Assembly (NCBI GenBank): GCA_964542925.1
Contig: CAZIWG010000003.1
Span: 10,763-74,762, forward strand
DNA from: an uncultured Granulosicoccaceae bacterium
GTDB lineage: Bacteria > Pseudomonadota > Gammaproteobacteria > AKS1
Length of the DNA stretch: 64,000 nucleotides
Reading direction: 5' to 3'
Part shown: positions 9,207 through 62,675 of the stretch, one piece after another
How positions within the stretch are numbered: position 1 is the first letter of the stretch
Layout of the letters: each line of letters opens with the position of its first letter
Notes under the pieces: model-generated
Seen by the model: the letters and a program-made list of their open reading frames with translations, nothing else
Told to the model about the DNA's origin: nothing
The model's database searches: none
Made by a program: the position numbers and the translations under genes

Positions 9207-9209
9207 ACT

Positions 9210-13179: not shown

Positions 13180-13187
13180 GAAGCATT

Positions 13188-39529: not shown

Positions 39530-39552
39530 AAACCATCGATTCTCAGTTAAAT

Positions 39553-40509: not shown

Positions 40510-40538
40510 ACTATTCCTATATTTCCAAGATTAATAAT

Positions 40539-45900: not shown

Positions 45901-46627
45901 TAGCAATATTGAGAAGATAATATCCATCACTCATCGTGGCATAAAGCTTGAAACCATTGCTGTTATAACTATTAAAACGGGTGACTTCACCTATGCCCAA
46001 CCCTGCATCGTATACTTGCCAAGTGACTCCACTATCCGTACTCCTAAATACCTTTTCTGTTGGTGTTGCTGCATAAACAGTGCCAGGCTGTCCGGGATGA
46101 AATGCAAAATCATGCACGCCAAACTGAATACCGATACCAGCCACTGCCCAACTATTGCCAGCATCTGTACTGCGATAAATTATTCCTGTGGTAGCTGCTA
46201 AAAGATTATTCTCGTTAAATGGATCAATCGAAATAACACTAATATTCAGATCGCTAAGACCTATGTTGGCAGTATTCCAGGAAATCCCATGATCTGTCGA
46301 CTTGTATATCCCCTCACCAAATGTTGCTACATATATTGTATCTGGGTTAGCTACACCTATTGAAATATCAAACACAGCCGCTTCAGAAAATGGTCCATTA
46401 ATATGAGCCCACGAAACGCCATAGTCGATACTTTTGTAGATGCCACCAAAATATGTTCCAAGAAACATTTCACCTGCAACAGTTGGATGCCTAATAGATG
46501 AAAAAACTGTGCCTCCATTTGGACCATAAGGTTCCCAAGGTGAATCAGTTACCGCAGAAAGACCTTGTGAAAAAAACAACAGCACCAGAGTGAAATATAT
46601 TTTTATTTGAATCATTTGGTGTGTCAT
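42887..46627 (-). CDS. Giant secreted BNR/Asp-box repeat protein (about 27 predicted beta-propeller blades)
   Basis: Signal peptide MTHQMIQIKIYFTLVLLFFSQGLSA|V. AGGGAG RBS upstream of the ATG at 46627. About 21 good S/T-x-D-x-G-x-(T/S)-W Asp boxes (e.g. STDSGVTW, STDGGNSW, SVDGGVTW, SEDGGDNW) plus about 6 degenerate ones, spaced about 45 aa apart and embedded in ...IYAGT..GG[VI][YF]KS.D.G..W... Confidence 0.85.
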   Translation of the reverse strand: MTHQMIQIKIYFTLVLLFFSQGLSAVTDSPWEPYGPNGGTVFSSIRHPTVAGEMFLGTYFGGIYKSIDYGVSWAHINGPFSEAAVFDISIGVANPDTIYVATFGEGIYKSTDHGISWNTANIGLSDLNISVISIDPFNENNLLAATTGIIYRSTDAGNSWAVAGIGIQFGVHDFAFHPGQPGTVYAATPTEKVFRSTDSGVTWQVYDAGLGIGEVTRFNSYNSNGFKLYATMSDGYYLLNIATDTWDDISYDIPDAVYYEVVQQPVTGELFAATDVGIFRSQTAEGFNSWIKWLDAPTRRLLIDESASIFHAAITSGTIFATIDNGATWFPANDGLQNMFVGALTSMPVGNTSVLYAGADSGVEYTSDFFATGTGQQVWVEDDNLNDSIFSLETHPSDIGTLFAGAEKTGVWKSIDWGATWLQKTNGLVPNRIFSIEQSTTLPRTLYAGTSSGLFVSQDDGDSWVKGTVAGLPQLVFSVAPDPVLNKVAYFGAAGGQIYTTIDGGNTVYLLSESLPDENVSALKIAPWGNHYAVTSGGGLYVSNNSGVEWFAANTGVAEPVLAVDLNPSLPWIMYLGTAGGGVYKSVSGAIEWQKSSSGIDNGYIFAVTLDPSMPDTVYAGGVGVVYKTTDGAANWLSNSTGLPDANVLSLSIDNTNSQVIYASVELNGVYKSTDGGNSWLPNSVSVPTNGNTAIALNPGNTQILYAGTDKKGIYKTIDSGTSWGSSSNGMTLFVRGLGVDRINPFNMYVGSLANGVFRTQDGGDNWEHVASTNGGEIFDLEVSITNPSNVIVSTSSGIMRSTDKGVNWSLPGQQTAYVHSLITDPTNADILYLGAEAGTGILKSTDSGMTWVSRSAELPAANAISLAMDPVSKNLFLGLEDSTLYKSTDDGNSWVEILKAGTFGHQFTDITINVTNGDIFVVTDGSGIYRSTDNGVNWGQINSGLASLVVTSVTIDNNNNVFASVFDSVTSNPGVYRLNTTNLSWEAFSNGLTSSFVNRVVVDAGIVGRLYAVTENGIFKSTDNAMTWQAVNSGIGTGTAVASMLIDTGNSNIIYAGTSTGEVYKSTDAAQTWLPTSISVGISPIRNLIAGTQANTVLAGSLGSGIVTTTDSGQSWSTAINKSLIRPFSLVAKYDPTNSNIVYIGSGGLGVLKSVDGGVTWQQKNNGLSNLFVLTMAVNPIVPNTIYAGTSLGGVFISEDGGDNWSVLNTGLFNKNITSIEIDEIDSNIVYAGTEGGGVFKNVRP

Positions 46628-46664
46628 TATAAATCTCCCTTTAGATATTACTTCATCAATAATT

Positions 46665-48134
46665 TTACTTATCAATACGAAACTCACCAATATAATTCAA
46701 ACCCTCGATAGATGTAATATCTCGAGGTTTTCTAACAAGGTTACCAAAATACTCCAATATAATAGCGAGACCTATTCCTAACAAAAGCCCTAGTGGTATT
46801 GAAATCCCAATAATAAGAAGCTTTCTAGGATAAACAGGTTCGGCTACCACGTAAGGTTTCTCCAAAATTGTTATATTCGAAACTCTCCTCAGATCCATTT
46901 CATCTGAAATTCGTGCTTCTTCTCGACGCTTTTCGTATATAAAATAACTTTCTTCAGCAACTTTGTGCTCACGATTAACAGAGGATAATTTCTCATCAGC
47001 ATGGTTTAAACTATCTAATTTTATTTTTAACGATGACGCTTGAGTTCTGAGCCTGTTGATTTTCGTATTAAGTGTACGTAACAATACGTTTTCGAGAGCA
47101 ACAATTTCTTTATCAAGATTCAAGATAGGCTTGGAATCTAATTTGTAGCTCCGAATAAGCTTAATCCGTTCCAATCTTAATATTGTAATACGTTTTTTTA
47201 TTGTTTCAATCGATAAAACTGTTGATGTAGATGCAGCGACAGGATCTCCCATCTCACTCTTGTCATCGAATTTTACGGGGTCTTCAGAATCACTAATATT
47301 CAACAACTTTATTTCGTTCTTAAGGTTTTGTATTTCACTATACAACTTGTGCAACCTCTTCAGCACAATTGTACTTTCATCCTTAACGGAACTAACATTA
47401 AGATTGCTTTTTAAAGATTCCCTGTCTTCCTCAATAGCATTAAGACTATCGCGATATTTTTCAGCTTGTGTGTCAAAAAAGTTTTTAATATCTGGATTGC
47501 GTCTAACTTCTATGTGTTTTTGTAGATAACGTGACAAATACTTTTCAATAATAATAACTGCCATCGACGGATCAGGCGACCTCAGACTAATATTAATTAC
47601 ATCTGAACGCTTTGCTCTGTCAATGACTATCACTCTTTGCAAAGACCTGATTAATTTATCTTTATTCGATATTTCTTTTTTAAGATTCAAAGCTATTAGT
47701 AAATTAACGATCTGTTCTTTACCCCAATGAGCAATTTTTTTTGTGTGATATTTTATTAACTTGAATATACCTTCAGGCTTCGCTGGCTCAGATAAGAGCA
47801 CATCTACTCCAATTTCATCAACCACATAGTTTATTAATTCTCTGGAACGAAGTAATTGAATTTCTGAATTGATATCTTCTTCACGAACGCCTGTTGTATA
47901 AACACTCGATATCTGAAGTGCATCAGGCACTTCTGTGTTCTCACGTCCAAGCTTAACCAATAGGCTAGACTGTGCTTCATACAGTTCTGTCATCAATTGA
48001 AGGCTGACATAAGCACTTAAGATGGTGATGACCATCACAACAATGATCATCTTCCTATAGAACATCAACACATGAAAAAGGTCTTCCCAGGTCTCAGTAT
48101 GTTGTTTTAGTTCATCGATATTTAAAAAACTCAT
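46665..48134 (-). CDS. Polysaccharide chain-length determinant (Wzz/PCP family, kinase-less)
   Basis: 489 aa. N-terminal TM with Wzz block (YRKMIIVVMVITILSAYVSLQLMTELYEAQSSLLV), long coiled-coil periplasmic region, and C-terminal TM (LLIIGISIPLGLLLGIGLAIILEYF). Confidence 0.82.
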   Translation of the reverse strand: MSFLNIDELKQHTETWEDLFHVLMFYRKMIIVVMVITILSAYVSLQLMTELYEAQSSLLVKLGRENTEVPDALQISSVYTTGVREEDINSEIQLLRSRELINYVVDEIGVDVLLSEPAKPEGIFKLIKYHTKKIAHWGKEQIVNLLIALNLKKEISNKDKLIRSLQRVIVIDRAKRSDVINISLRSPDPSMAVIIIEKYLSRYLQKHIEVRRNPDIKNFFDTQAEKYRDSLNAIEEDRESLKSNLNVSSVKDESTIVLKRLHKLYSEIQNLKNEIKLLNISDSEDPVKFDDKSEMGDPVAASTSTVLSIETIKKRITILRLERIKLIRSYKLDSKPILNLDKEIVALENVLLRTLNTKINRLRTQASSLKIKLDSLNHADEKLSSVNREHKVAEESYFIYEKRREEARISDEMDLRRVSNITILEKPYVVAEPVYPRKLLIIGISIPLGLLLGIGLAIILEYFGNLVRKPRDITSIEGLNYIGEFRIDK

Positions 48135-48351
48135 ATTTACGACTTCCCTTCCCGCTTTAATACTATTATCGATCTATTGAAAAATATCCCGAATAAGTTA
48201 GATATGGTTCAATAAATGCTTAGCGCCCCCTTTACTGACACTACAATATTAAACGCTTTTAAGCTCTGACACCATCTATAATTTTCATTTAAGCCTATGT
48301 TTTTAATGTATTTTTATCAAAATCAAACATACACTTAAATATTGTCTGGTA

Positions 48352-49674
48352 TTACGGTAACTCACGAGGCGTAGCAACATCTGTGTCAAATGCAGAATCC
48401 CACTTCATCCCCTCCTCGGTAATTGGGGTGGTGACTCTCGTATAAGGCAATACCACTATCTGAACAATGACTGCTTTGACAAGTCTTGAAATCCCACCGA
48501 CCCAAGCCGCACCCACAGCACCGTATTCTGGTATATATTTCATATACAGCAACAGCAGGATAGGAAAAGTGATTAAATCAAGCCACAAAATAAAACGGGG
48601 CTTAACAAACATAATAAACGAAACAGTCGCAGGGAAAATAGCCATACTAGCCAACGTTCCCATAAATAAACCTAACATTACATCCATCGAAGCCATAAAA
48701 GAAGGTGGCAACAATAATGGAGCGATAAACTGTAGTGCAAACAACAATACAAGGTAACCACTAATAGCTGTTAACCATAAAATACTCTGAATTTTTTTAT
48801 AAAACAGAAAAAAATCACCTGCCACATATAAAGGCATAATCTTAGGGCTAATAATAATCGCTAGATATATACCAAAGAGTTCTGGAATCATCGCATAAAC
48901 ATAACCACCAGCAAAAATACCTACGTCAGTAAGATTTCTAAGACCCGTTAATAAGAAAATATCCATCCTGCTTATCGCCGCAGCAATCATGAATGTAATC
49001 AAGTACCATTTTATGTAGCCAAATAATTCTCCAAATACACTTAGCTGCCCTGCAAATGAGCCGAGAAGCTGTTTGTGATTCAATGCAAGTCCAATCACAA
49101 AAGCCACGCCAGGTCCAAATACAAAAAACAATAATATATTTTCAGGCGTTACTTTAGAAAGCAATATTAATGATGCAATTCCTCCATATTTAATAGCAAT
49201 ATGAATAAAATCTAACTTTCCATACATTAGGAATTTTTCATCTACCTGCAGGTGGACAAGTACGCTTCGGAACATCAGAACGAAAATAGCCGCGACAAAA
49301 GTAATAAAAAATGCATCCATATATTTGACACTATCGAAAAGAAACAGATTTATAGCATTGGCATAAAATATAACTATGCTGAATACCAATAGTGACAAAA
49401 ACAACTTAAACGAGAGTGCTGCTTTCTCGATATTGATGGAACGTATATGGTTCGTTGAACGATAAAGTGGTGATAGGCGCAATACACCCATATCAATAGC
49501 AGATCCGATAATAGCATCTGTCAGTAATATGGCTGATACACACAAGGTATACACACCAAATTCTTCAATACTTAGATAACGAAGAAGAACTATATTAAAT
49601 AACAAGGTTAGAGAACCGGCTAACACCTTAGGCAATGCTATATAAGCAAAGTCAATAAACCCTTTTTTCAACAT
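48352..49674 (-). CDS. Polysaccharide flippase (Wzx, MOP superfamily)
   Basis: 440 aa, about 12 TM. The N-terminus LPKVLAGSLTLLFNIVLLRYLSIEEFGVY is typical of Wzx/polysaccharide biosynthesis proteins. Confidence 0.8.
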   Translation of the reverse strand: MLKKGFIDFAYIALPKVLAGSLTLLFNIVLLRYLSIEEFGVYTLCVSAILLTDAIIGSAIDMGVLRLSPLYRSTNHIRSINIEKAALSFKLFLSLLVFSIVIFYANAINLFLFDSVKYMDAFFITFVAAIFVLMFRSVLVHLQVDEKFLMYGKLDFIHIAIKYGGIASLILLSKVTPENILLFFVFGPGVAFVIGLALNHKQLLGSFAGQLSVFGELFGYIKWYLITFMIAAAISRMDIFLLTGLRNLTDVGIFAGGYVYAMIPELFGIYLAIIISPKIMPLYVAGDFFLFYKKIQSILWLTAISGYLVLLFALQFIAPLLLPPSFMASMDVMLGLFMGTLASMAIFPATVSFIMFVKPRFILWLDLITFPILLLLYMKYIPEYGAVGAAWVGGISRLVKAVIVQIVVLPYTRVTTPITEEGMKWDSAFDTDVATPRELP

Positions 49675-49753
49675 ATCGCATCCCTACATGGTGACGTTGT
49701 ATATTTATTTAACCATGCATGGTCAAGAAACCGTACAATTCATACACCCAGTT

Positions 49754-50572
49754 TTAATTAGAGTTAGTGTTAAACTTAGTTTCTGAATGTAACTGGTATG
49801 TAAATGACAATCCCAAGTTACGATATATTGGCACAATATTATTGAAGTACTGCTTAAAGAAATCGGATATCTTGCCTATTTCAGTTTGAGGCACATAAAC
49901 AATATCAAATGGTTCAAGAAATATATCTGTAGCCGGATTCATCTTAAAAATACCATCTTGATTACAGCCATCACAGGAATTACTAGATGCATTGACTGCT
50001 ACTAAACCGACATGATCACGCAGGTTAAGTGTAATAAATTGGGGAGTACTGGTTCCACTATTACGAAGAATCACTATATTTCTTCGTTCTGCATCATGAT
50101 CAAAACCACCGGCTTGCAAAATAGCCTGAAGAGCTGTCATGTTACCACTAATTATCAGCGCACCAGGTTTACTAACTTCTCCACCAATATAGACTTTCTG
50201 CTCTGAAAAACTTCGAACAATAACTGCGACCTCGGGACGACGTAATATTCCTACATATTTTTTTACTAATACTTTACGAAGTTTACCTGGTACTAATCCT
50301 ACTGCATGCACCTCACCAATCAATTGTAATGAGATTTTTCCATCTGGTCGTATAACAACTGATTCATTTAATTCCTTGTTATAAAAAAACTTAATATCAA
50401 TTTTATCTCCTACCTGCAAATAATAGGGATGAATAATTGGCTGAGCAGACAACTTTACAGATTCATTAACATATTTTCTCGAATCAGGTGCAGTATTAAG
50501 CGGAACAGTATGCTGCATACAGCCGATAAGCAGCATAGATGTAATAACTAAAAGTATGATACGTATTTTCAT
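49754..50572 (-). CDS. Polysaccharide export protein (OPX/Wza-like, Poly_export + SLBB), lipoprotein
   Basis: Lipobox LLIGC. YYLQVGDKIDIKFF...IRPDGKISLQLIGEVHAVGL...(Poly_export) followed by the SLBB-like VYIGGEVSKPGALII. Confidence 0.85.
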   Translation of the reverse strand: MKIRIILLVITSMLLIGCMQHTVPLNTAPDSRKYVNESVKLSAQPIIHPYYLQVGDKIDIKFFYNKELNESVVIRPDGKISLQLIGEVHAVGLVPGKLRKVLVKKYVGILRRPEVAVIVRSFSEQKVYIGGEVSKPGALIISGNMTALQAILQAGGFDHDAERRNIVILRNSGTSTPQFITLNLRDHVGLVAVNASSNSCDGCNQDGIFKMNPATDIFLEPFDIVYVPQTEIGKISDFFKQYFNNIVPIYRNLGLSFTYQLHSETKFNTNSN

Positions 50573-50958
50573 ATCAGTTAAATTATCCGTATTAAACCTG
50601 ATGTTTAGAATTCATTCCGCCAACACCATTTTGTTATAAATCACAAAATATCTTCCCCGACAAATACCCGTTCGGAAAAAAGTGCCTCTTAACATATGTG
50701 AACTTACACAAGAAGATTAGACCTTCCCCCAAGATGTTTAAGGATATATTAGTAAAACCTTAAAATCAATCTAATAATCTAACATAACAAATTGTTTTTA
50801 TAGATTATTTCCTTAGAACAGCAATTTGGTAACTAACGCTAAATAATCCATTTTCGGAACCTAAATTGGTTTATTATGTCTGAGCAATATAGATACTAAA
50901 ATGCAACAATAAGTCTATACATTCCAGGAAAATACAAAAACAAAGGATTGATACAGAT

Positions 50959-53169
50959 ATGAAAAAGAGATTGATTTCCACTACTTGCTTTCTTCTTATC
51001 TCAAGTGTTTTGTATATGTTTCAGTTAATTCTGAATCCATACAGTAATCAAGCACAAGCATCGTCAAACCCCGAGACTCCTGTGATTGCTTCGCCCTACT
51101 ATGGCTTTACACCCTTTCCATACGATACGACCCCGTCAGCAATTCGTAATACACAAATGATTATTGAAAAAAATTCAGACTTATATGCTATTCATCTTGA
51201 CGAGTGTCTTCCATGGCGTCAGATGCTTGATAATGCCCCCTTCCCTAGATATAAGCAAAATGATTGGGATGGGATAAAATACAACATACCTAATGGGCAT
51301 AAAGTTTATGTTGCACTGGCTTTTCTTGGTACCGATCGAGAAACACTGGCACCAACCTGCGGCCAAGAAAGAGATCAATTTGAGTCTCTACCATCTCCTC
51401 TTCGCAGTACCAGTTTCAAGGACCAGCACGTTAAAAGTGCATACCTAAACTATGTTAGAAAAGCTATTAGACAATTCAACCCTGATTTTCTCAATCTCGG
51501 AATTGAGCTAGAAGGTCTTGCTCATCGTTTCCCCTCTCGCTGGAGAGAGTTCGAGGATCTGTTTTTTTATATTCGAGATACCATAAAAAAAGAAAACCCA
51601 AATATAAAAATCGGAATATCACTTGGCTTACAACCACTTCTTGATCCTGCTGTTGCAGCCCGAGTCAAATCCGTTGTTGAAGGTAGCGACTATTTCGGGT
51701 TGAGCTTTTATCCTTACGCATCGTCATTTCATGAAAAGCTAGGTGCACCTGCACTAAACCAGGGAACTGCAAGCTGGATCAAGCCGCTAGAGTGGGCACG
51801 CAACTTCACAAACAAACCCATTGCAATATGTGAAACTGGCTATACAACCAAAGACATCCACATACGAAAATATGATCTGCATATGAAAGGTAGCACACAA
51901 GAGCAAGCCGACTATGTGCGAGACTTATTGACCATATCAAAAAGAGATAATTATATGTTCGTCGTATGGTTTTTAGCTATAGATTACGACAAGCTCTACC
52001 AGAAAATGCCTCAAAATGATGAAACAGAAATTAATCTTTTATGGCGTAACATTGGCCTTCTAGACGGTAATACCCAGCCAAAACCTGCGTGGAATATATG
52101 GAAGCAATACAAAACTCTGGGTAAATCTGAAGCTAAAACAACTTCAAGCCAACGCAGACAAACAGCTGCCCCCCAAGCTGCTCCAGTAATTACTCAAGAA
52201 TCTCGCCATGTAGTGGAATCCAGTGGCATAAAAATCGGTTTCTCGCAGAATAATGAGTTACCTGCCTGTGCGTCAGGAACAAATGTAAATATTTCTACAT
52301 CTGACACACCCAGCAAAAATATGTCATCAATGCAATGGAAATATCAGAGCACTGGAGATTGGCAATGGTGTGTAAAACAGATAAATACAGGACGCGTAAC
52401 TGGCACTGATAAATTGAAATTCTGGGTGCGTGCAAATACTGCTCGACAATTTTTCATCACACTTAAAGAAGATAACGGCGAAGCATTCACTAAAAACTTT
52501 AGTGTATCAACAAACTGGTCACTAAAAACACTCGATCTAAAAAAACTCACAGCAGATCGGGGAGAAGTACAAGATAACAAATTAGATACCAGTAAAATTA
52601 CATCCATGATTATTTCCGACCCAACCTCAAGCGATGACGAACTGACCCTGTTAATTTCAGACATGACGTTTACAAAATCGAATAATAATACAGTGTCACT
52701 GCATAACCGTTCTATTCAACTTGAGTTTAATTCTGACAAAGATTTATTTAATTGTGGTTCGGGAAGCAGCCCAAAGATTGTCGCAAGCCTGCCAGGCACT
52801 GATGGAAAATCGATGCAGTGGGAGATTCATTACAATGGTAAGTGGCAGTGGTGTCTAAAACAATTAGACAGAGGAAAGCTTGCCGGGACGCATAAAATTG
52901 GATTCAAAATCCGTAGTAACCGCGATGGCCCTATTTTTGTCAATCTCACAGAAGATAGCGGCGAGGCATTCTATGCCATAATAGATACAAATACTGTATG
53001 GAAAGATGTAGAACTAAAGCTTGATTCATTGACTCTAGATAATGGAAAAAAGAGAAACAATAAAATTGAACCCGATGATCTAATAGAAATTATGTTTGCA
53101 GACCCCGAAGGGCCCAATAACAATAGTGGAGAACGAAAAGTCTGGATATCAGATCTAAGGTTCATGTGA
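50959..53169 (+). CDS. Secreted glycoside-hydrolase-like (clan GH-A TIM barrel) protein with two tandem C-terminal binding-module-like domains
   Basis: Signal peptide. Candidate acid/base NLGIELEG and nucleophile IAICETGY about 110 aa apart, the spacing and order expected for a (beta/alpha)8 GH-A enzyme. Two homologous C-terminal domains are offset by 161 aa (MQWKYQSTGDWQWCVKQINTGRVTGTDKLKFWVR... / MQWEIHYNGKWQWCLKQLDRGKLAGTHKIGFKIR...). Confidence 0.7.
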   Translation: MKKRLISTTCFLLISSVLYMFQLILNPYSNQAQASSNPETPVIASPYYGFTPFPYDTTPSAIRNTQMIIEKNSDLYAIHLDECLPWRQMLDNAPFPRYKQNDWDGIKYNIPNGHKVYVALAFLGTDRETLAPTCGQERDQFESLPSPLRSTSFKDQHVKSAYLNYVRKAIRQFNPDFLNLGIELEGLAHRFPSRWREFEDLFFYIRDTIKKENPNIKIGISLGLQPLLDPAVAARVKSVVEGSDYFGLSFYPYASSFHEKLGAPALNQGTASWIKPLEWARNFTNKPIAICETGYTTKDIHIRKYDLHMKGSTQEQADYVRDLLTISKRDNYMFVVWFLAIDYDKLYQKMPQNDETEINLLWRNIGLLDGNTQPKPAWNIWKQYKTLGKSEAKTTSSQRRQTAAPQAAPVITQESRHVVESSGIKIGFSQNNELPACASGTNVNISTSDTPSKNMSSMQWKYQSTGDWQWCVKQINTGRVTGTDKLKFWVRANTARQFFITLKEDNGEAFTKNFSVSTNWSLKTLDLKKLTADRGEVQDNKLDTSKITSMIISDPTSSDDELTLLISDMTFTKSNNNTVSLHNRSIQLEFNSDKDLFNCGSGSSPKIVASLPGTDGKSMQWEIHYNGKWQWCLKQLDRGKLAGTHKIGFKIRSNRDGPIFVNLTEDSGEAFYAIIDTNTVWKDVELKLDSLTLDNGKKRNNKIEPDDLIEIMFADPEGPNNNSGERKVWISDLRFM

Positions 53170-53174
53170 TTCAC

Positions 53175-53828
53175 TCAGTTACTATTACATGACTGCATAA
53201 CATATGTGTCATATACATGAGAGCGACCAGACAAACTCTCAAACACAACATGCTTATCGAATGCTAATGGTGACGTGTGTTTAAAACAATCCTGCATATC
53301 TGCGTACGCTACAGGTTCACTAATAACTTCTAGTGGCCAACCGATAATAAGCAAACCATTTTCAATTAAAATTCTATAAACTGACTGTATTGTATTGGTA
53401 ACAGTTTCTTTTTCGTTGATACCATAACCAAAGACACCATTTGCAATGACAACATCGAAAGAATTAACCGGAAAGTGCTTTTCAAGTTCTTGCGCATCAC
53501 AGACAACATGATGTCCCGGTTCACCCCATTTAGCTATTTCCGGGTTAATGTCCATCGTCCAATATTCTGTACCTGTACCAGCAAAAACATCACTATAGTG
53601 AGTAGTAAATGAATCAACACCGATGAAAAGGATCTTTTTAACCCCTGCTTCCTTCAATGCTGGAAGAATTTCATTCATCATATACACTCTGTCCGGTAAT
53701 TTTGATACCATACGTTTAAAAATAACGCCACGTATCAAACTTAGGATGCTTCTAGGAACAACCTTTTTAACGTAAGGAACAAAAGGTAGCAGGCGAACAA
53801 TAATTTCGAAAAATAATTTTCTTAACAT
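53175..53828 (-). CDS. Class I SAM-dependent methyltransferase
   Basis: 217 aa. KILFIGVDSFTTHY..., DVVIANGVFGYG and ENGLLIIGWP give a Rossmann MT pattern. Confidence 0.7.
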   Translation of the reverse strand: MLRKLFFEIIVRLLPFVPYVKKVVPRSILSLIRGVIFKRMVSKLPDRVYMMNEILPALKEAGVKKILFIGVDSFTTHYSDVFAGTGTEYWTMDINPEIAKWGEPGHHVVCDAQELEKHFPVNSFDVVIANGVFGYGINEKETVTNTIQSVYRILIENGLLIIGWPLEVISEPVAYADMQDCFKHTSPLAFDKHVVFESLSGRSHVYDTYVMQSCNSN

Positions 53829-53913
53829 ATAATTCCTTTTAAGCTTTATAGTTAGTTAAATTAAATACTGTACTAACACTGAGTATAACATCCTGTAATT
53901 AAGGACCATCTAT

Positions 53914-55035
53914 ATGGATATTGGAATATTCCTGGTTATGGCTGGGCGTGAAGCTGGGGGCCCTGAAACCTATGAAACATCCCTGGTTCGTCATTTGGCG
54001 ATGCTTGATGGTGAGACAAACTATCACATTTACTGTCTTGACAAAAATGCACCTGCATCGCTCAACATCCAACAAGACAATATAAATATACATACATTTG
54101 CGATTAAATCTCGCTGGATCAACATACCACTTAGCTTACCACTGGCAATGTATCGTGATGGTATAAAGCTAATGCATAATACTTTCATCCCCCCCCCTTT
54201 TTCACCAAAGGATTACGTCTTTACCATGCACAGCTCTGTACATTTTGTACACCCTGAATTCTATCCGACAATAATACGCTTACGTCTAAACTCATCAATT
54301 AAAAAAGGTATTAACAAGGCAAAAAATATCATCTGCGTATCTAACAATGTCAAGGACCTTACTGCTGAATATTATGGTGTATCCCTCGATAGACTATCAG
54401 TAATTTACCATGGTGTTGATCCTATATACAAGCCATTAAACTCTGATAAAACATCTTTACATTTGAGTGAATACTACAAAATAAATGATCCATATATATT
54501 AGTCGTTGGAAAAATACAAAAAAATAAAAATATCATTCGTATCCTTGAAGCTTTCTATAAATTAAAAAAAGATTCAAATATTCATCCTCAACTTAAACTG
54601 GTACTGGCGGGGAAACGCACATGGACCTCAGAAGGTATCGATGAAACCATCTTAAAATATAAACTACAGAATGATATTATCGAATTAGGACATATACCAC
54701 AGAATGAGCTTCCTATACTGTATAACGGTGCTCAACTTCTTGCCTTCCCAACCTTATGGGAAGGTTTTGGACTACCTGCCCTAGAAAGCATGGCATGTGG
54801 AACACCTGTTGTTACATCAAATAATTCCTGTATGCCTGAAATAGCCAGTGGTGCAGCAATACTAACTGATCCATATAACACTGACAGTCTCGCTTCCGGG
54901 ATGTATAAAGTCTTAACTGACCAAAATACCGCATTAACACTTCGAGAAGCTGGACTAAAACGTGCTGCAAATTTCACTTGGGAAAAAACTGCGCAACAAA
55001 CACTAGCAGTCTACCAAAAAGTATACAGCGGATAG
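53914..55035 (+). CDS. Glycosyltransferase family 4 (GT-B)
   Basis: C-terminal EGFGLPALESMACGTPVVTSNNSCMPEI (E-x7-E motif). Confidence 0.88.
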   Translation: MDIGIFLVMAGREAGGPETYETSLVRHLAMLDGETNYHIYCLDKNAPASLNIQQDNINIHTFAIKSRWINIPLSLPLAMYRDGIKLMHNTFIPPPFSPKDYVFTMHSSVHFVHPEFYPTIIRLRLNSSIKKGINKAKNIICVSNNVKDLTAEYYGVSLDRLSVIYHGVDPIYKPLNSDKTSLHLSEYYKINDPYILVVGKIQKNKNIIRILEAFYKLKKDSNIHPQLKLVLAGKRTWTSEGIDETILKYKLQNDIIELGHIPQNELPILYNGAQLLAFPTLWEGFGLPALESMACGTPVVTSNNSCMPEIASGAAILTDPYNTDSLASGMYKVLTDQNTALTLREAGLKRAANFTWEKTAQQTLAVYQKVYSG

Positions 55036-55039
55036 AAAC

Positions 55040-55762
55040 GTGGAAATCGTTATATTATCTCCCCACCTAGATGATGCCGCTCTAAGCTGCAGTGATCATA
55101 TTCATAGATGGAATACTGCCGGTCATAACACTACAGTTGTGAGCATATTCAGCTCTTTCAATACCCCTGTTGTATCAGATTACCTAAATCATTTTATGGA
55201 AACATCAGGGATCGCCTCTGTTCATGAACTAGAAAAACTAAGAAAACAGGAAGATATTAATGCTATGAAACTAATGGGATGTCATATGACACACCTAGAC
55301 TTTATTGATGCAGGGTATCGCCAATTTAACGGTATTACTATATATCCTGATTACAAAGAACTGTGCCCATTCACACTACCCCAAAAAGAAAATATTACGA
55401 TGACTGAAGTCTCTAATCGACTATCAGAATATAAAGAAGCAGATATCATTCTTGTACCACTAGGTATTGGCGGGCATGTGGATCACATAATAACAAGAGT
55501 TGCAGCAGAAAAAATGGGGATAGACAATAAGCTTGCATATTACATCGATTTTCCATACGCCTTAAATCCACTAAAGTGGCGTGTAAATCATATTAAAAGT
55601 CTCTTTTCGTATTCATGTTCTCTTTACTGGATAAGTATATTCAAACGTAGAATTCTTGAATGTTACCCTTCACAAATACCTTATTTGTTTAAAATGAAAC
55701 CACAATATCCTGAAATCATCCTATTCAAATATAAAAATATAAAATCGCAATTCATGATGTAG
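55040..55762 (+). CDS. PIG-L/LmbE-family N-acetylglucosaminyl deacetylase
   Basis: GTG start. VILSPHLDDAALSC (PIG-L motif) and a later GGHVDH metal-binding motif. Confidence 0.8.
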   Translation: MEIVILSPHLDDAALSCSDHIHRWNTAGHNTTVVSIFSSFNTPVVSDYLNHFMETSGIASVHELEKLRKQEDINAMKLMGCHMTHLDFIDAGYRQFNGITIYPDYKELCPFTLPQKENITMTEVSNRLSEYKEADIILVPLGIGGHVDHIITRVAAEKMGIDNKLAYYIDFPYALNPLKWRVNHIKSLFSYSCSLYWISIFKRRILECYPSQIPYLFKMKPQYPEIILFKYKNIKSQFMM

Positions 55763-56140
55763 CGACAATCTAGTACTTAATAGTAACTGCGTATTGGGTA
55801 AACCCGCATTAATGTAAGTCAACCAATTATTAAATCTCTCATTCATGATATATGCCTAATACCATTCCGGGAAAATAGGGGCGTAAAGAAAATTTGGCCG
55901 ATATACAAAAAGATTCTCTTAAACTTCTCTGAGCTGTGGCACCCCAAGTTCTCGCTGTTGTCTATGAAACCAGCTCTTTTAAAATATCCACAAATAAACC
56001 ACAAGAAAAGGTTCTACATAAATAACACGATTTTCTGGGACAAAATGGTATGCAACATACTGCGATACTGTCCATACATTATCCTAAAATTGTGCACCTA
56101 GATAATAAATCGTTTTACCTTGCAACATACTCATTTCAAG

Positions 56141-57319
56141 CTACCCATTTTTCATCATTTGGCCATACAGCGATCCAACATAACCAACTGCTGTTTCAAG
56201 TGAATAGTCATTCTCAATGAAATAACGCGCATCTCGCCCTAGTCGATTTTGCAAAGACTGATCACCAATAACATTACTAACCGCCTCAATAAATCCTTCG
56301 TCATCATCGGGTGGCACTAATATACCTGTCTTATTATTATGAATTACTTCAGATAAGCCGCCAACATCAGAGACAACAATAGGTATACCCGATGCCATAC
56401 CTTCACATATTGCCAGTGGGACGCCTTCCAAATAAGATGGATGAACCTGAATATCAACTTGGGCTACCAATTTTGGCAAATCAGGCACAAAACCTAGAAA
56501 ATCAACTTTTTCATTAAGTCCTAATTCAGCACATAGTGATTTAAGTTTATCCTCAAGTGGGCCAACACCTGCAATCCATAACCGTGTATTTGGGTAACGC
56601 TCATTAATTATTTTAAAAGCCTGTAATAAAAAATCCTGACGTTTTACCGGGTAAAAACGTGCAATATTACACAACACGATCTCATCATCAGACACACCCC
56701 TCTCCGCACGTAATTGTGTACGCTCAATAGTCGTTAATTCAACTCGGTGTGTTTCAAATCCACATATAAGAAGAGGTGTTTTCGCCTCATCTATCCCACG
56801 CTCAATACTACCGATACGTGTTCTTTCACAATGAGCAGAAACAACATCAAATAATCGAAACAAATATTTCTGAATCACCTGAAATACAGCAACAGGCCAA
56901 CCTTTTTCTCCCCACACATACATTGTTGTAAGAAGCTTTACACCTGCTATACGTGCAGCAAATAAACCAACAAATTCAGCATAAAAATTATGCGTATGAA
57001 GAATGTCAATATTATGCCTGCGTATTAATTTAATTAATGCTCGCGTTGAACTTATCACGGGTTTATGACGCCCCCATGGTATCTTGCTTATGCTAATACC
57101 ATTCCTTTTTGCAGCCTCAACAAATGGCTCTTCAGAATTTCCCGGATTTGCGAAACATACTAAGTGAATTTTATAGCGCGAATTGTCAATTTTTTTTAAC
57201 CAATTAATCAAAGCTGTTTCTATCCCACCATATGCCATGGTATGAATAAGATGCATAACCCTAATTGGTTTTTCTGAAACAGGTGTAACTATTTTGTCCT
57301 CGGCAATATTATTATTCAT
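56141..57319 (-). CDS. Glycosyltransferase family 4 (GT-B)
   Basis: IRVMHLIHTMAYGGIE... N-terminal domain. EGVPLAICEGMASGIPIVVSDVGGLSEVI (E-x7-E). Confidence 0.9.
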   Translation of the reverse strand: MNNNIAEDKIVTPVSEKPIRVMHLIHTMAYGGIETALINWLKKIDNSRYKIHLVCFANPGNSEEPFVEAAKRNGISISKIPWGRHKPVISSTRALIKLIRRHNIDILHTHNFYAEFVGLFAARIAGVKLLTTMYVWGEKGWPVAVFQVIQKYLFRLFDVVSAHCERTRIGSIERGIDEAKTPLLICGFETHRVELTTIERTQLRAERGVSDDEIVLCNIARFYPVKRQDFLLQAFKIINERYPNTRLWIAGVGPLEDKLKSLCAELGLNEKVDFLGFVPDLPKLVAQVDIQVHPSYLEGVPLAICEGMASGIPIVVSDVGGLSEVIHNNKTGILVPPDDDEGFIEAVSNVIGDQSLQNRLGRDARYFIENDYSLETAVGYVGSLYGQMMKNG

Positions 57320-57341
57320 TATTAGTCACAATTACTGACAC

Positions 57342-58229
57342 CTAAAACTGTTGCCTCGAGCCACTCAATCTGGAACCCAAGTTGCCGAATTTCGTATATA
57401 ACGTTTGAAGACTAAATTTCGGTTTATCAGGCTCGTATTCATGCTTACTCAGGATGACACCCATAATTTTACTGTTAACACTACCAAGTATTCTTTTCAT
57501 TTCCCCAACTTCTTGCTTACTTCTGACTCCATTAGAAACGACAATAATAGTGCTATCAGCATGACTGGCAATCACGGGAGCATCGGGTGCTTCCAGAATC
57601 GGCGGCGCATCAACCAATATATAACGGTACCGGGAACGCAATTCATTAAATGTATTGCCACATTTATCAGATAGTAAAAGAGACAAGAAATTTACGACAA
57701 CATCACCGGATGTCAGTAATGATAGATATGGTATTTCAGTTGTTGAAATTGCTTCACCAAGTGTACATTTATCTGATAATACGTCAGATAATCCTGGCAC
57801 CTGTTCAACACTGAAATATTTATGTAGAGATGGTGCGCGCAGATTTGCATCGACAATAAGAACTTTATCCTGACTCATCAACGATAGTGATACTGCAATT
57901 TGCCTAACAATAGTACTGTTTCCTTCAAACCTACGGCCACTTACAAAAGCCATCACTTTCTCTTCTTCAGTAAGGCTAGCCTTAAATCTTGCTGCCAACC
58001 GTATAGCATCATCAGAAATAGGTAAGTGGTTATCTTTGTATTGAGTAAGAATACTGAGTAACTGTTCTGCAGTAAGTATACCCATTTCCTCCATAACTAA
58101 ACCAATGAGAGCATTCTTCTCACCACGTGACATCCTTGACTGCTGTTCATTTAACGCAATCTGAATCTGATCAGATGTTGCATAGCCTAATCTTACTGCT
58201 ACTACACCAAGCGGTTCGGTAGATTTCAT
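57342..58229 (-). CDS. BY-kinase-like (CpsD/CapB-type) P-loop protein with substituted catalytic residues and N-terminal GspE-N/MshEN-like domain
   Basis: Residues ~92-275 align by eye with CapB/CpsD. The Walker A is VSGRRFEGNST, with Asn104 (AAC, 57918-57920) where the invariant Lys is expected. The Walker A' is LIVDAN, with Asn129 where Asp is expected. Walker B ILVDAPP is kept. There is no C-terminal Tyr cluster. N-terminal residues 6-63 resemble tandem T2SSE_N motifs (PLGVVAVRLGYATSDQIQIALNEQ / LIGLVMEEMGILTAEQLLSILTQ). Confidence 0.75.
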   Translation of the reverse strand: MKSTEPLGVVAVRLGYATSDQIQIALNEQQSRMSRGEKNALIGLVMEEMGILTAEQLLSILTQYKDNHLPISDDAIRLAARFKASLTEEEKVMAFVSGRRFEGNSTIVRQIAVSLSLMSQDKVLIVDANLRAPSLHKYFSVEQVPGLSDVLSDKCTLGEAISTTEIPYLSLLTSGDVVVNFLSLLLSDKCGNTFNELRSRYRYILVDAPPILEAPDAPVIASHADSTIIVVSNGVRSKQEVGEMKRILGSVNSKIMGVILSKHEYEPDKPKFSLQTLYTKFGNLGSRLSGSRQQF

Positions 58230-58286
58230 ATTAAATCCTATTGTAAATACTTAAAGTTTCTGCGTAATGTTTCTGTTTACCAAACA

Positions 58287-59408
58287 TTACTTCTTATTAA
58301 CAATAACAGGAAATTCTTTATAACTATTTTTACTTGGATGCTGCAGGAAAATATCACATCCATCACATACTGATCTGACATGATCTTCCAATACCTTACT
58401 GGAAAAAAGTGAACGTGCTGATTGATAGACTGGACTATTCCATAACTGACGCACATTGATCTCAGAACTATTAAGATTTACAAAGTCGTTTTTCTCTCGA
58501 TATACTTCACAACATGGTGATACTCCACCATCAGCATTCACAACCATAGAACGGTATAAATAGAAACATGGACTTGGCCGCGAGTCCTGCCCATATTTCT
58601 GTTCTTCATGTGTACTTTCCACCTTACCTTTAACCTTTTCTGGAAACCATTTATCAGCTAATTCTTTTCTATTTTTAAAATCATAGGGCATACCAACAGG
58701 TATGAATCGCATCACATCAACACCCATTTTATCTGCAATCTTCTGAGCATCTGAAACCTGATGCTCATTCTGTTTCATAACAATAAATTGCCACTCAACA
58801 ACGGGGATCTTTTGACCTCTGAGATTTCGGCGGCGAATAATCTCAGACATATTATGCATAACACGTTCATATGAGCCACGTACACGATATTGCCCATAAG
58901 CTTCCTGACTAGTACCGTCTAACGAAACAACAAGATACTCAAGCCCGCAATCCAATAGATTATCAATACCTTCTGAATTAAGTGTAGCCAGATTTGAGCT
59001 CAGGTTAGTGCCTACATTCTTATTTGATGCATATTCAATCATTTTATAAGAGTCCTTATTTAATAATGACTCCCCCCAATTATGCATATACGCTTCAAAT
59101 AGGTAAGGTGATAACGGATCAAAATATTTCTTAAATGATTCAAACGACATCATACTTTGCTCTCGACCAAGGTCTTTTACACCGGTTGGGCATAACGGGC
59201 AACGGAGATTACAATAATTACAAGGATCGATAATCAGGATATATGGAAAACTTTTCAACTCTATACATCGACGTTTACGCTCTAACTCTGCACGTACAAG
59301 ATTACTCCATTTGGATATAGAACCATGTTGAATTACAGAACGAAGATGGCGACTATTTCGAGTATATTGAGGTATCTTTTTTAAAAATCGTTCTACTACA
59401 GACATCAT
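58287..59408 (-). CDS. Radical SAM enzyme with C-terminal Cys-rich SPASM/twitch-like region
   Basis: CNLRCPLC (CxxxCxxC) within DPCNYCNLRCPLCPTG. The C-terminal cysteines are ...SPCFYLY...VSPCCEVY...VCDGCDIF. 373 aa. Confidence 0.8.
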   Translation of the reverse strand: MMSVVERFLKKIPQYTRNSRHLRSVIQHGSISKWSNLVRAELERKRRCIELKSFPYILIIDPCNYCNLRCPLCPTGVKDLGREQSMMSFESFKKYFDPLSPYLFEAYMHNWGESLLNKDSYKMIEYASNKNVGTNLSSNLATLNSEGIDNLLDCGLEYLVVSLDGTSQEAYGQYRVRGSYERVMHNMSEIIRRRNLRGQKIPVVEWQFIVMKQNEHQVSDAQKIADKMGVDVMRFIPVGMPYDFKNRKELADKWFPEKVKGKVESTHEEQKYGQDSRPSPCFYLYRSMVVNADGGVSPCCEVYREKNDFVNLNSSEINVRQLWNSPVYQSARSLFSSKVLEDHVRSVCDGCDIFLQHPSKNSYKEFPVIVNKK

Positions 59409-59427
59409 CTTACCTTTATGCTTATTT

Positions 59428-60408
59428 TCATCCTGCCTTAACGGCTGAAGAACTATTTATTTCTGATATGTAATCAATGGTTCGATGTAAACCAGCACAC
59501 AAATCAACTTCCGGACTCCAATCCAACAAATTTTTTGCTTCCTGATTATCACAAAAACTACGTTTCATATCTGTTGGACGCATTTTCTGTTCATCTATTA
59601 CTACTGGAATATTACTAGCCATCAAATGAGTAACTTCTTTGGCAAGTGATTCAACTGTCCGCTCATGACCACCACCAATGCTTATTACGTGCCCATTAAT
59701 TTCTTTAGCATTCGCCGCAGCAAGTAGATAAACAGCGACGGCATCATCGATATATAAAGGATCACGAGTCTGGCCTCCTCCCATAAGTCTTACCTCAGAT
59801 TTTCCGTCAAGAACTGACTCTGTCACATAATTTATTAGATTAAATGGTTGACCAGGACCATAAATCAAGGTTGGTCGAACTGACACAATATTTATTCCAT
59901 ACAAGATTTTATAAAGCTTACACATTTGCCATGCAGTAGACTTACTAATAGCATATGAGCCAAGTGGTTCATCAACCATCGCTTCTCGATAGGGGACTGC
60001 ACAATCACCATAGTCTTTAGTACTATCACCAAAGACAAGTACTTTACAACCACTTTGGCGCATCCCTTCCAGTACATTAACTGTACCAATAATATTACTG
60101 GAGATAGCATGGCAAATCTGCTGATGAGACTCCATGCCATCAGGATGTGCGGCAAGATGTATAACAATGTCAGGAGGAAACTGATTTAAAACACTAATCG
60201 TATCATCCGCATTTTCAAGATTACAACCAACATATCTACATTTGGGTTTATCAACTAATCCCATCGGAATTACTCGATCCAGGGCTGTAATATTTGCCCC
60301 CATGGCAAGCATGTGCTCCACAACATGTCGACCAATAAACCCACAGGCTCCTGTCACGAGCACGTTGCTATGTTGGTATATCGTTATCAATGACTCAGAA
60401 TATTTCAT
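59428..60408 (-). CDS. NAD-dependent epimerase/dehydratase (extended SDR)
   Basis: VLVTGACGFIGRHV (GxxGxxG) and GSYAISK (YxxxK). 326 aa. Confidence 0.88.
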   Translation of the reverse strand: MKYSESLITIYQHSNVLVTGACGFIGRHVVEHMLAMGANITALDRVIPMGLVDKPKCRYVGCNLENADDTISVLNQFPPDIVIHLAAHPDGMESHQQICHAISSNIIGTVNVLEGMRQSGCKVLVFGDSTKDYGDCAVPYREAMVDEPLGSYAISKSTAWQMCKLYKILYGINIVSVRPTLIYGPGQPFNLINYVTESVLDGKSEVRLMGGGQTRDPLYIDDAVAVYLLAAANAKEINGHVISIGGGHERTVESLAKEVTHLMASNIPVVIDEQKMRPTDMKRSFCDNQEAKNLLDWSPEVDLCAGLHRTIDYISEINSSSAVKAG

Positions 60409-60439
60409 AATTATTTACCTGAGTTAACTAACCAGTTAT

Positions 60440-61192
60440 TTAAAATGCACCATCACCTAGCAATACTTGCTTCAGAGTCTGGTACAATATTTTCAGATCA
60501 TAGGTAAATGATCGGTTACGTATATATTCAAGATCTAGTTCAACAGTATCGTAAAATCCAAGACGCCCACGACCTGACACCTGAGCAAGTCCCGTTACAC
60601 CAGGGCGAACCGAGAATTTTTTAAGCATCTCGCCCTTGTAATATGGCAACATTTCCGGAATCTCGGGGCGAGGACCAACCAATGCCATATCACCAGTAAT
60701 TACATTCCAAAAATTTGGTAGTTCATCCAGACTGATCTTACGTAGCCACTCACCCTGTGGTGTAACCCGTGGATCATTTTCAACTTTGAATTTTAATTCC
60801 TGCATATCCTGCGGAGTATATTGATAGGTATACAATTCAGGAAAACGCTCACGAGCGTCAACATACATAGTGCGAAATTTAATAAATGGAAATAACTTGC
60901 GGCCTAAACCCACTCTACTTTGTCGAAATAAAACAGCCCCTGAAGTGCCAAATTTTATAATGACAGCAGTGAAAAACATTACGGGCAAACTAATTAAAAG
61001 AGCAATACTTGCAAAGACAACTTCGAAGACCCGTGTCCGAAATTCAATCTTGATGCGATTATTTTGAAATTTATCTGTTGCATTAATGATATAAGTATCT
61101 ACATCAGCATTCGTACTGACTTGCACTGTATCGACTAATTCTTCAACCCCTTTTTTATCGATCTCTTTAGCCGTATTAGTTTCGAGTAACAT
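60440..61192 (-). CDS. Small monotopic phosphoglycosyl transferase (bacterial sugar transferase, PglC/WbaP-C-like), initiating enzyme
   Basis: Single hydrophobic helix VVFASIALLISLPVMFFTAVIIKF, then DELPNFWNVITGDMALVGPRP and RPGVTGLAQVSGR motifs. Strong RBS AAGGAGAG upstream of the ATG at 61192. Confidence 0.88.
   Translation of the reverse strand: MLLETNTAKEIDKKGVEELVDTVQVSTNADVDTYIINATDKFQNNRIKIEFRTRVFEVVFASIALLISLPVMFFTAVIIKFGTSGAVLFRQSRVGLGRKLFPFIKFRTMYVDARERFPELYTYQYTPQDMQELKFKVENDPRVTPQGEWLRKISLDELPNFWNVITGDMALVGPRPEIPEMLPYYKGEMLKKFSVRPGVTGLAQVSGRGRLGFYDTVELDLEYIRNRSFTYDLKILYQTLKQVLLGDGAF

Positions 61193-61870: not shown

Positions 61871-62675
<805 letters not shown>

Follow-up and report, generated by a model that had tools for sequence, protein, structure and literature searches.

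A probable BY pseudokinase with an MshEN_N-type hairpin domain in a conserved Wzx/Wzy-type exopolysaccharide cassette

The locus and its genes

The DNA analysed here (the window) is a stretch of 64,000 nucleotides from an uncultured Granulosicoccaceae bacterium (contig CAZIWG010000003.1). On its minus strand lies a gene for a protein of 295 amino acids (aa) in which a small N-terminal domain, predicted to be of the MshEN_N type, precedes a domain with the fold of a bacterial tyrosine (BY) kinase whose nucleotide site is degenerate (Table 1). The gene is part of a 23-kb cassette for exopolysaccharide (EPS) synthesis of the Wzx/Wzy type. Capsule and EPS pathways of this type are thought to be paced by cycles of BY-kinase autophosphorylation. 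The protein is very probably a BY pseudokinase with an MshEN_N-type domain acting in such a pathway, and is best explained as a cytoplasmic regulatory or scaffold subunit of the cassette. The evidence for each domain is given first, followed by the gene neighbourhood and by the question of whether the N-terminal domain responds to cyclic di-GMP (c-di-GMP).

Table 1. Features of the pseudokinase gene and its cassette (positions in the window)
Feature	Position	Strand	Basis or remark
MshEN_N-like and BY-pseudokinase gene	57342..58229	minus	ATG start, 295 aa, stop codon counted in
Putative MshEN_N-like four-helix domain, residues 5-66	58032..58217	minus	helices 7-13, 19-34, 42-48 and 54-66, forming two hairpins
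Hairpin/motif I, residues 6-29, PLGVVAVRLGYATSDQIQIALNEQ	58143..58214	minus	agrees with the relaxed motif of Wang et al. 2016
Hairpin/motif II, residues 41-64, LIGLVMEEMGILTAEQLLSILTQY	58038..58109	minus	preceded by an 11-residue spacer
BY-kinase-fold P-loop domain, residues 67-262	57444..58031	minus	Foldseek against the PDB
Alpha1 helix of the BY-kinase-fold domain, residues 73-85, SDDAIRLAARFKA	within 57444..58031	minus	AlphaFold2 model
Degenerate Walker A, residues 98-106, GRRFEGNST	57912..57938	minus	Asn104 (codon AAC, 57918-57920) for the P-loop Lys
Degenerate Walker A', residues 123-131, VLIVDANLR	57837..57863	minus	Asn129 (codon AAT, 57843-57845) for the second Asp
Walker B, residues 204-207, ILVD, kept	57609..57620	minus	sequence
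Whole Wzx/Wzy-type EPS cassette	38489..61192	minus (four genes on plus)	Pfam scans, tblastn synteny
GT4 glycosyltransferase (GT4a), candidate direct partner	56141..57319	minus	Glycos_transf_1 and Glyco_transf_4; 22 nt downstream of the pseudokinase
PCP-2-type co-polymerase, 489 aa, candidate membrane partner	46665..48134	minus	Pfam Wzz and GNVR only, no kinase domain
Radical SAM/SPASM enzyme	58287..59408	minus	Pfam Radical_SAM and SPASM; directly upstream of the pseudokinase, same operon orientation
1267-aa BNR/Sortilin-Vps10/YCF48-like beta-propeller-repeat protein	42887-46690	minus	
736-aa protein, signal-peptide-like N-terminus	50959-53169	plus	no Pfam match

A kinase-like domain without catalytic residues

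The sequence-only reading of this stretch had described the gene product as a BY-kinase homologue substituted at two catalytic positions, and it stands in its essentials. The open reading frame (ORF), with its ATG start and 295-aa product, agrees with both the ORF list and the sequence, and direct reading of the two codons gives Asn in each place. The Walker A pattern GxxxxGK[ST] is represented by G98-RRFE-G103-N104-S105-T106, with Asn for Lys, and the Walker A' pattern hhhhDxDxR by VLIVD127-A128-N129-L130-R131, in which the second Asp of DxD is Asn. Walker B is unbroken (I204-L-V-D207). The cluster of tyrosines at the C-terminus is absent, as had been claimed, since the last 25 residues hold one Tyr; this tail is unconserved and was modelled with a low predicted local distance difference test (pLDDT) score.

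Assignment of the fold rests on family models and on structure prediction. The NCBIfam model TIGR01007 (polysaccharide biosynthesis tyrosine autokinase domain) scores the protein at 122.4 bits against a cutoff of 108.05, and AAA_31 is its only Pfam match. An AlphaFold2 model of the full protein, for which 100 homologues were used, reached a mean pLDDT of 87, and the best 50 Foldseek matches of the model in the PDB are all BY-kinase domains (E 1e-16 to 1e-12), namely those of CapA/B (4jlv, 2ved, 3bfv), Wzc (3la6), BceF (6z0p), VpsO (6u1q) and Etk (3cio). On this model the BY-kinase fold is secure, and the C-terminal two thirds can be taken, as first proposed, for a BY-kinase homologue that has neither catalytic residues nor Tyr tail. 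Compared with a catalytic BY-kinase of the CapB/Wzc/Etk type, the protein shares the fold, the family model and Walker B, while the Walker A Lys, Walker A' and the Tyr cluster are missing. Compared with BY pseudokinases of the EcpK/HfsB type, which have a BY-kinase fold without catalytic Walker residues or Tyr tail, it shows the same combination. With Lys gone from Walker A, the second Asp gone from Walker A' and no Tyr tail left, the domain should no longer be able to phosphorylate. It is the sole BY-kinase-like ORF of the window, and Pfam scans of the cassette for a phosphotyrosine phosphatase or a second BY-kinase found neither.

An N-terminal hairpin pair related to MshE

Ahead of the kinase-like domain, two helical hairpins are predicted. 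A PDB search with a profile of the first 80 residues of the clade gave six matches at E<0.02, all of them MshEN/GSPII domains: Geobacter PilB (5ZFR, 5TSG, 6OLJ), Thermus PilF (6F8L, 6EJF) and Vibrio cholerae MshE (5HTL), with E from 6e-4 to 2.5e-3. The profile alignment to Geobacter PilB covers both hairpins, and the spacer between the hairpins of that protein is also longer than five residues. A separate model of residues 1-80 (pLDDT 80) has c-di-GMP-bound MshE (5HTL) as its best Foldseek match (probability 1.0, TM-score 0.65, 29% identity), and its top eight matches are c-di-GMP-bound MshE followed by PilF GSPII-B. In addition, NF053729 ('cyclic di-GMP-binding domain-containing protein, MshE-related') aligns to residues 6-62 of the window protein and matches 14 of 14 clade members at E<=0.01 (best E 2e-8).

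The relaxed MshEN motif of Wang et al. 2016 is [RKPN]hGxxhhxx[GAS]hhxxxxhxxxhxx[QNKRYWST]. Residues 6-29, singled out in the sequence-only reading as motif-like, agree with it at all positions. The second hairpin retains both Gly and the hydrophobic positions of the motif save position 7. As a regular expression, the relaxed motif also matches a membrane-spanning helix in one of the transporters encoded in the window, and 0.07 matches are expected in shuffled ORFs; because the expression alone is weak and non-specific, the case for an MshEN domain leans on profile and fold.

Not all searches agree. Pfam PF05157 (T2SSE_N) had no match in the 295-aa protein even at E<=1, and for this reason the MshEN call is based on the NCBIfam, profile and fold evidence. 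The score of the window protein against NF053729 is 22.7 bits, under the curated cutoff of 38, and the Foldseek E of the 80-residue domain is weak (best 0.056), though the ranking is specific. The T2SSE_N/MshEN-like domain that had been proposed is thus upheld by profile, NCBIfam and fold (5HTL) and not by PF05157 or by a full-strength NF053729 score. Taken together, profile and predicted structure identify the N-terminal ~65 residues as an MshEN_N-type two-hairpin domain.

A similar long-spacer hairpin pair is found in three other proteins, P0217 (745 aa), P0230 (864 aa) and P0257 (411 aa), which carry four to six copies of it amid zinc ribbons. Their repeats follow the pattern FGxxAVRxGYxxxxQVDxCLxEQ, ~11 aa, RIG/LGxLLVE...Q, with faint DUF4388 matches. 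Judging by these repeats, the three may be multi-site c-di-GMP-binding proteins built on the same MshEN_N variant.

Conservation and decay across the clade

Relatives of the protein were surveyed in an alignment of 100 database hits and by a profile search run exhaustively over 1.84 billion representatives, which returned 561 proteins at E<=1e-30, of which the best 150 were inspected. The full architecture of hairpins plus BY-kinase-like domain is present in about 50 of these best 150 representatives (clusters at 50% identity). The P-loop Lys is kept in none of the ~50, its place being taken by V (18), A (17), T (7), S (4), N (2) or other residues; two cases of 'K' in the raw count were canonical kinases wrongly scored by a crude filter. 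Of the clade representatives among the same 150, only about half still have the Walker B Asp (Asp207).

The 100-hit alignment gives the same picture. Clade members have N, A, V or D at position 104. Proteins with GK[ST] mostly have DxD and a Tyr-rich tail, whereas most of those with DAN have V, A, C, T or N for the Lys and none has a Tyr-rich tail; a few DAN groups keep the Lys. In an alignment of 14 clade members, none of the ten P-loop positions is conserved at >=90%, while the hairpins have ten invariant residues, G8, A11, V12, L14, G15, L26, Q29, G43, Q56 and L61, and E48 and G50 of motif II are conserved at >=90%. The hydrophobic positions L7, I22, L26, I42, L57 and L61, together with G8, G15, G43 and G50, are invariant or conservatively swapped across the clade. 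Mean identity between the window protein and distant clade members is 42% over residues 5-66 and 35% over the kinase-like core. Judged from these alignments, selection keeps the N-terminal module and the overall fold, not the nucleotide chemistry.

Several other large BY-kinase-like lineages among the database hits (for example P0057, P0065, P0018 and P0037) also lack the P-loop Lys. They include one with 'GNGCSW...DANLR' ending in RTFPIPDSLYKKL, one with 'GEGTST' and EpsG with 'DGVS', and their source names are those of tyrosine kinases or capsular EPS family proteins. From their sequences, it appears that BY pseudokinases are common and that their mis-annotation is systematic. Names of the NCBIfam type such as 'tyrosine autokinase' and 'tyrosine kinase EpsG' are probably wrong for families without the Lys.

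The exopolysaccharide cassette and candidate partners

The cassette runs in the order epimerase, methyltransferase, GT2 glycosyltransferase, Wzy, the 1267-aa BNR/Sortilin-repeat protein, polysaccharide co-polymerase (PCP), Wzx, Wza, the 736-aa protein, methyltransferase, GT4, PIG-L deacetylase, the GT4 partner, the pseudokinase, the radical S-adenosylmethionine (SAM) enzyme, epimerase and the initiating sugar transferase. It is not confined to the window: tblastn showed an essentially whole cassette in three genomes of Burkholderiales, namely Rhodoferax, Roseateles toxinivorans DSM 16998 and a Burkholderiaceae metagenome-assembled genome (MAG), as well as in the MAG of an uncultured betaproteobacterium and in two MAGs of Phycisphaerae (loci L007-L012, R. 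toxinivorans being L011). About 13 genes are common to the window and loci L007-L013, with protein identities of 30-65%; the shared members include the sugar transferase, epimerase, pseudokinase, two GT4s, the 736-aa protein, Wzx, PCP, the 1267-aa protein, Wzy, GT2 and Wza. Since the same cassette occurs in Burkholderiales and Phycisphaerae, it appears from this synteny to be a horizontally mobile EPS module shared between lineages.

The strongest genomic link of the pseudokinase is with the adjacent GT4. A GT4 orthologue stands directly after the pseudokinase in all examined loci that extend past it (L001-L004 and L007-L012), and in L013 the two are one fused gene. Single polypeptides of MshEN_N, pseudo-BY-kinase and GT4 occur in three diverged representative clusters, P0146 (664 aa), P0156 (651 aa) and P0167 (656 aa). 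The GT4 half of P0146 is 49% identical to the window GT4 and that of P0156 44%. For P0156 the gene was seen uninterrupted on a 53-kb contig of an NCBI genome, within the same cassette, where Wza-PCP-BNR adjoins it. Among the sequence evidence, no other pointer to a physical partner is as strong as this 'Rosetta stone' fusion, which the sequence-only reading had not taken into account and which points to the GT4 as a specific effector enzyme.

A second candidate is the PCP. That a Wzz-like co-polymerase is encoded ~9 kb away was seen correctly in the sequence-only reading, and the protein has no kinase domain of its own. Its translation ends in a cytoplasmic tail of ~26 aa after the second transmembrane segment. 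In split CapA/CapB systems such a tail segment reportedly docks the kinase. A kinase-less PCP-2 in the same pathway is also what characterizes EcpK/HfsB-type systems. The PCP is a conserved cassette member, with an orthologue in the same cassette in L007-L012 and L013. The sequence-only reading had taken this distant protein for the functional partner; the invariant adjacency and the three fusions place the GT4 first.

Other members of the cassette show features of their own. Upstream of the pseudokinase, the loci of Proteobacteria have a radical SAM orthologue of 63-82% identity, which the Phycisphaerae loci lack. In Proteobacteria no gene of the module is better conserved (82% in L001 and 63% in the Burkholderiales-type loci L008-L011, compared with 70% and 35% for the pseudokinase). 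No obvious precursor peptide for the radical SAM/SPASM enzyme was seen. In L003 the orthologue of the 1267-aa protein is fused to GH31 domains. The 1267-aa and 736-aa proteins may process or bind the polymer.

Cyclic di-GMP binding and alternative explanations

On the strength of its hairpin sequences, the 295-aa protein is slightly more likely than not to bind c-di-GMP. Binding is plausible because some of the deviations from the motif occur in proven binders. In MshE, binding depends most on hydrophobic residues and glycines; each substitution of a hydrophobic residue costs more than 10-fold in affinity, while substitutions of Arg9 or Gln32 change it less than 5-fold (Wang et al. 2016, PMC5013675). 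PilF GSPII-B, whose two motifs have Lys and Leu as their first residues, binds c-di-GMP at 6 nM, and the weaker second site of PilF (KD2 460 nM) has been attributed to GSPII-C, which has Pro at position 1 of motif II (PMC11731258). Motif I of the Escherichia coli glycosyltransferase NfrB opens with PLG, and its dissociation constant (Kd) for c-di-GMP is ~1 uM (Junkermeier & Hengge 2021, PMC8669469).

Several observations weigh against binding. Motif II is off consensus at position 1 (Leu), at position 7 (Glu where a hydrophobic residue is expected) and at position 24 (Tyr64 for Gln), and Gln63 lies one residue out of register with the ribose/phosphate-binding Gln position. The spacer between the motifs has 11 residues (30-40) compared with the canonical five of a 53-residue unit. 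PilF GSPII-A, which has one good and one degenerate motif, shows no binding (PMC11731258), and the binding predicted for Methylobacillus EpsG, a protein of similar architecture, was based on motif conservation alone (Wang et al. 2016, PMC5013675). Genes of the GGDEF, EAL or HD-GYP kind were found neither among the window ORFs scanned (all but those at ~22.4-29.8 kb and a small number elsewhere beyond the cassette) nor in the examined flanks of related loci.

These deviations would suit a hairpin pair that is a degenerate MshEN_N relic and binds no nucleotide, serving as a ligand-free protein-protein module that tethers the protein to the GT4, the PCP or another cassette protein and leaves it a constitutive scaffold like EcpK and HfsB. 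Besides the second motif, with its Glu, its long preceding spacer and no in-register terminal Gln, the sub-threshold NF053729 score, the Pfam null result and the lack of c-di-GMP turnover genes close by all fit such a module. There are precedents too: XpsE, GspE and Pseudomonas aeruginosa PilB (Wang et al. 2016, PMC5013675) and PilF GSPII-A (PMC11731258) have MshEN-like domains on record as non-binding, and the N-domains of Xanthomonas PilB that bind a PilZ protein (7lkm, 7lkn) are among the fold matches. We nevertheless regard it as the less likely explanation, for although identity within the clade has fallen to ~30%, the ligand contacts of MshE are the positions that have not varied (the two position-3 Gly, the Gly turns, the Leu triads and Q29), the nearest structures are ligand-bound forms of true binders, and such single deviations as no Arg, or Pro or Leu at position 1, are found in proven binders.

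A second alternative places the switch in the kinase-like domain. The protein would still be nucleotide-dependent, either as an ATP-binding dimeriser or ring-former of the MinD/ParA kind or as a weak kinase, with Asn104 tolerated and ATP rather than c-di-GMP driving the cycle. Apart from the substitutions, the site is indeed whole in the window protein and in those closest to it (G98, G103, S105-T106, D127 and Walker B D207), the canonical P-loop fold was modelled at very high confidence, and the MinD and BcsQ models were matched weakly. This explanation is improbable, however, when the whole clade is considered: the Lys is missing in every surveyed member and position 104 is free to vary (V/A/T/S/N/L/G/H/Y), and several lineages that have a P-loop deletion and no Walker B Asp retain the N-terminal domain and the gene context. 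That pattern points to relaxed selection on nucleotide chemistry, and neither a Tyr tail that could serve as substrate nor a phosphatase gene is present.

An artefact or a functionless, decaying pseudogene, for which one might cite the metagenome assembly from which the window derives, is effectively refuted, since independent assemblies (NCBI GCA_006243245.1 and Logan SRR6439372) carry an identical 295-aa product, the ORF is unbroken, orthologues at 70% identity also have Asn at 104 and DAN at Walker A', the architecture is common to ~50 diverged representative clusters, and 27 alignment columns are invariant in the clade with synteny kept. The identical product and the shared Asn104/DAN exclude sequencing error for practical purposes, and the clade-wide loss bears out the earlier view that the substitutions evolved.

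A proposed role in the pathway

With c-di-GMP binding as the favoured reading, the following mechanism can be proposed. The N-terminal hairpin pair would take up c-di-GMP through its hydrophobic triads and the backbone amides of two Gly, as in MshE and PilF. Occupancy would alter docking of the BY-kinase-like body onto the downstream GT4 and onto the kinase-less PCP-2, at its cytoplasmic face or tail. Binding of the second messenger would in this way gate repeat-unit synthesis, co-polymerase assembly or both, replacing the cycle of tyrosine phosphorylation. We are moderately inclined to accept this scheme, a c-di-GMP-gated pseudokinase docking to GT4 and PCP-2, as a whole. Interaction with the GT4 or PCP is something that we infer from genomics only, and this tells against the scheme; the direction of regulation, like binding itself, is also an inference. 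A wider and distinctly more tentative suggestion is that, in this clade and in EpsG-type systems alike, c-di-GMP occupancy may have replaced the phosphorylation cycle as the assembly/disassembly switch of kinase-less PCP-2 proteins, coupled to a dedicated GT4.

Should this wider suggestion hold, a second messenger would gate a Wzx/Wzy-dependent polysaccharide pathway directly and at the post-translational level, and post-translational control by c-di-GMP would extend from synthase-dependent systems (cellulose, poly-N-acetylglucosamine (PGA), Pel, alginate and NfrB) to those of the Wzx/Wzy type. Roseateles toxinivorans DSM 16998 is a cultured carrier of the same cassette that can be used for genetics.

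Relation to known systems

The architecture has a precedent in Methylobacillus EpsG, a protein of EPS loci of the methanolan/exosortase type, which Wang et al. 2016 (PMC5013675, supplement) described as MshEN_N joined to a non-T2SSE ATPase, a 'proposed chain length determinant tyrosine kinase', and predicted to bind c-di-GMP. The window protein resembles EpsG in that an MshEN_N-type hairpin pair is followed by a BY-kinase-like P-loop domain within ~290 aa. Both have a Walker A' of the form DANLRxP, no Tyr tail and a replacement of the P-loop Lys (DGVS or DGAS in EpsG), and the locus of each is a Wzx/Wzy EPS locus in which the PCP is a separate protein. Profile-profile comparison of the clade with EpsG gave 99.7% probability over nearly the full length, with hairpin I of the clade aligned to hairpin II of EpsG.

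The two differ in other respects. Identity is ~25%, and the window protein scores 95.3 bits against the EpsG equivalog model TIGR03029, for which the cutoff is 313.8. The EpsG hairpins are canonical (24+5+24; SMGVLLLDSGKLTPEDAERVLRMQ - KELGI - RFGEAAVRLGLVSEDDVQQALARQ) with Arg starting motif II, whereas the spacer in the window protein has 11 residues. The order of genes around EpsG is Wza-PCP-EpsG-exosortase EpsH-EpsI-Wzy-Wzx, and in the window clade it is sugar transferase-epimerase-radical SAM-pseudokinase-GT4; an exosortase was not found in the window cassette by Pfam scans. Unlike EpsG, members of the window clade are sometimes fused to GT4. Orthology with EpsG is rejected on the TIGR03029 score and the gene context, and the sequence comparison places the window protein in a subfamily of its own, unnamed and sister to EpsG, in which the hairpin unit is rearranged. 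The 'EpsG' named in the Sphingomonas promonan paper is a glycosyltransferase and is unrelated.

BY pseudokinases have been described in EPS pathways by Blocher et al. 2025 (PMC12004946), in which EcpK of Myxococcus xanthus (partner EpsV) and HfsB of Caulobacter crescentus (partner HfsA) scaffold a kinase-less PCP-2. What drives binding and unbinding was left open, and neither c-di-GMP nor MshE is mentioned in that paper. The window protein is like EcpK and HfsB in belonging to a Wzx/Wzy pathway with a PCP-2 that lacks a kinase domain, the two having been proposed as phosphorylation-independent scaffolds. This likeness is one of description, and as described (PMC12004946) EcpK and HfsB differ from the window clade, which has an MshEN_N-type domain and GT4 fusions. 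A pseudokinase lineage with a conserved MshEN_N module offers a concrete, testable answer to what substitutes for the phosphorylation cycle in such systems.

The claim of a new control logic, as first put forward for this gene, was therefore too strong, because the architecture and predicted binding of EpsG (PMC5013675) and BY pseudokinases (PMC12004946) had been described before. A search of the literature, limited to one searchable library, found no paper uniting an MshEN domain, a BY-kinase or EpsG and a polysaccharide co-polymerase. What the window clade adds is an unnamed subfamily with rearranged hairpins, a putative sensor kept while the nucleotide site decays clade-wide, an apparently horizontally shared cassette and the GT4 fusions.

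In NfrB, c-di-GMP acting on an MshEN domain activates a glycosyltransferase whose product is a secreted polysaccharide (Junkermeier & Hengge 2021, PMC8669469). The fused proteins P0146, P0156 and P0167 likewise have an MshEN_N-type domain and a glycosyltransferase in one polypeptide, and the window protein shares with NfrB the PLG start to motif I. In NfrB, however, a full MshEN domain (N and C subdomains) lies C-terminal to a processive, membrane-anchored GT2 synthase, there is no BY-kinase-like domain and the pathway is synthase-dependent, not Wzx/Wzy. The N-domains of MshE, PilB and PilF (5HTL, 5TSG, 8PDK) have the same four-helix, two-hairpin fold and conserved Gly/Leu/Gln pattern as predicted here. 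They are accompanied by MshEN_C (T2SSE_N1) and precede a hexameric T2SSE ATPase, whereas in the window protein MshEN_N alone precedes a BY-kinase fold of the SIMIBI class.

A c-di-GMP sensor and a P-loop protein of the MinD/ParA class also regulate a polysaccharide secretion machine in the BcsE-BcsQ(R) system of enterobacterial cellulose secretion. BcsE (GIL domain) and BcsQ are, however, two distinct proteins whose families are unrelated, BcsQ can still bind nucleotide, and the pathway is synthase-dependent. Several clade members match the BcsQ model weakly.

Sequences flanking the cassette

The EPS cassette (38400-62650) resembles an island inserted into a canonical metY(tRNA-Met)-rimP-nusA-infB operon. 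At one edge are tRNA-Met (62558-62634, minus strand) and remnants of IS3-family transposases (61893-62153, an rve fragment, and ~62163-62400), and rimP-nusA-infB begins from 38247. The guanine plus cytosine content is 36-39% in the cassette and 42-46% in the housekeeping DNA. A 161-aa 'ORF' on the minus strand (62163-62648) was discarded as spurious, as its frame crosses the gene for tRNA-Met and a remnant resembling IS3 OrfA.

The PNPase encoded in the window falls into one cluster, at >=90% identity, with that of a Sulfuriflexus sp. MAG, and the DNA appears to derive from a Sulfuriflexus-like gammaproteobacterium. Elsewhere in the window, a run of anion and metal transporter genes on the plus strand (5706-16044) has two SulP/STAS sulfate permeases around an EptA-like phosphoethanolamine transferase, followed by three tandem transporters of the CitMHS/ArsB type. 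A DsrE-like protein is encoded at 62814-63284. Together, the transporter run and the DsrE-like protein are consistent with the lifestyle of a sulfur oxidiser.

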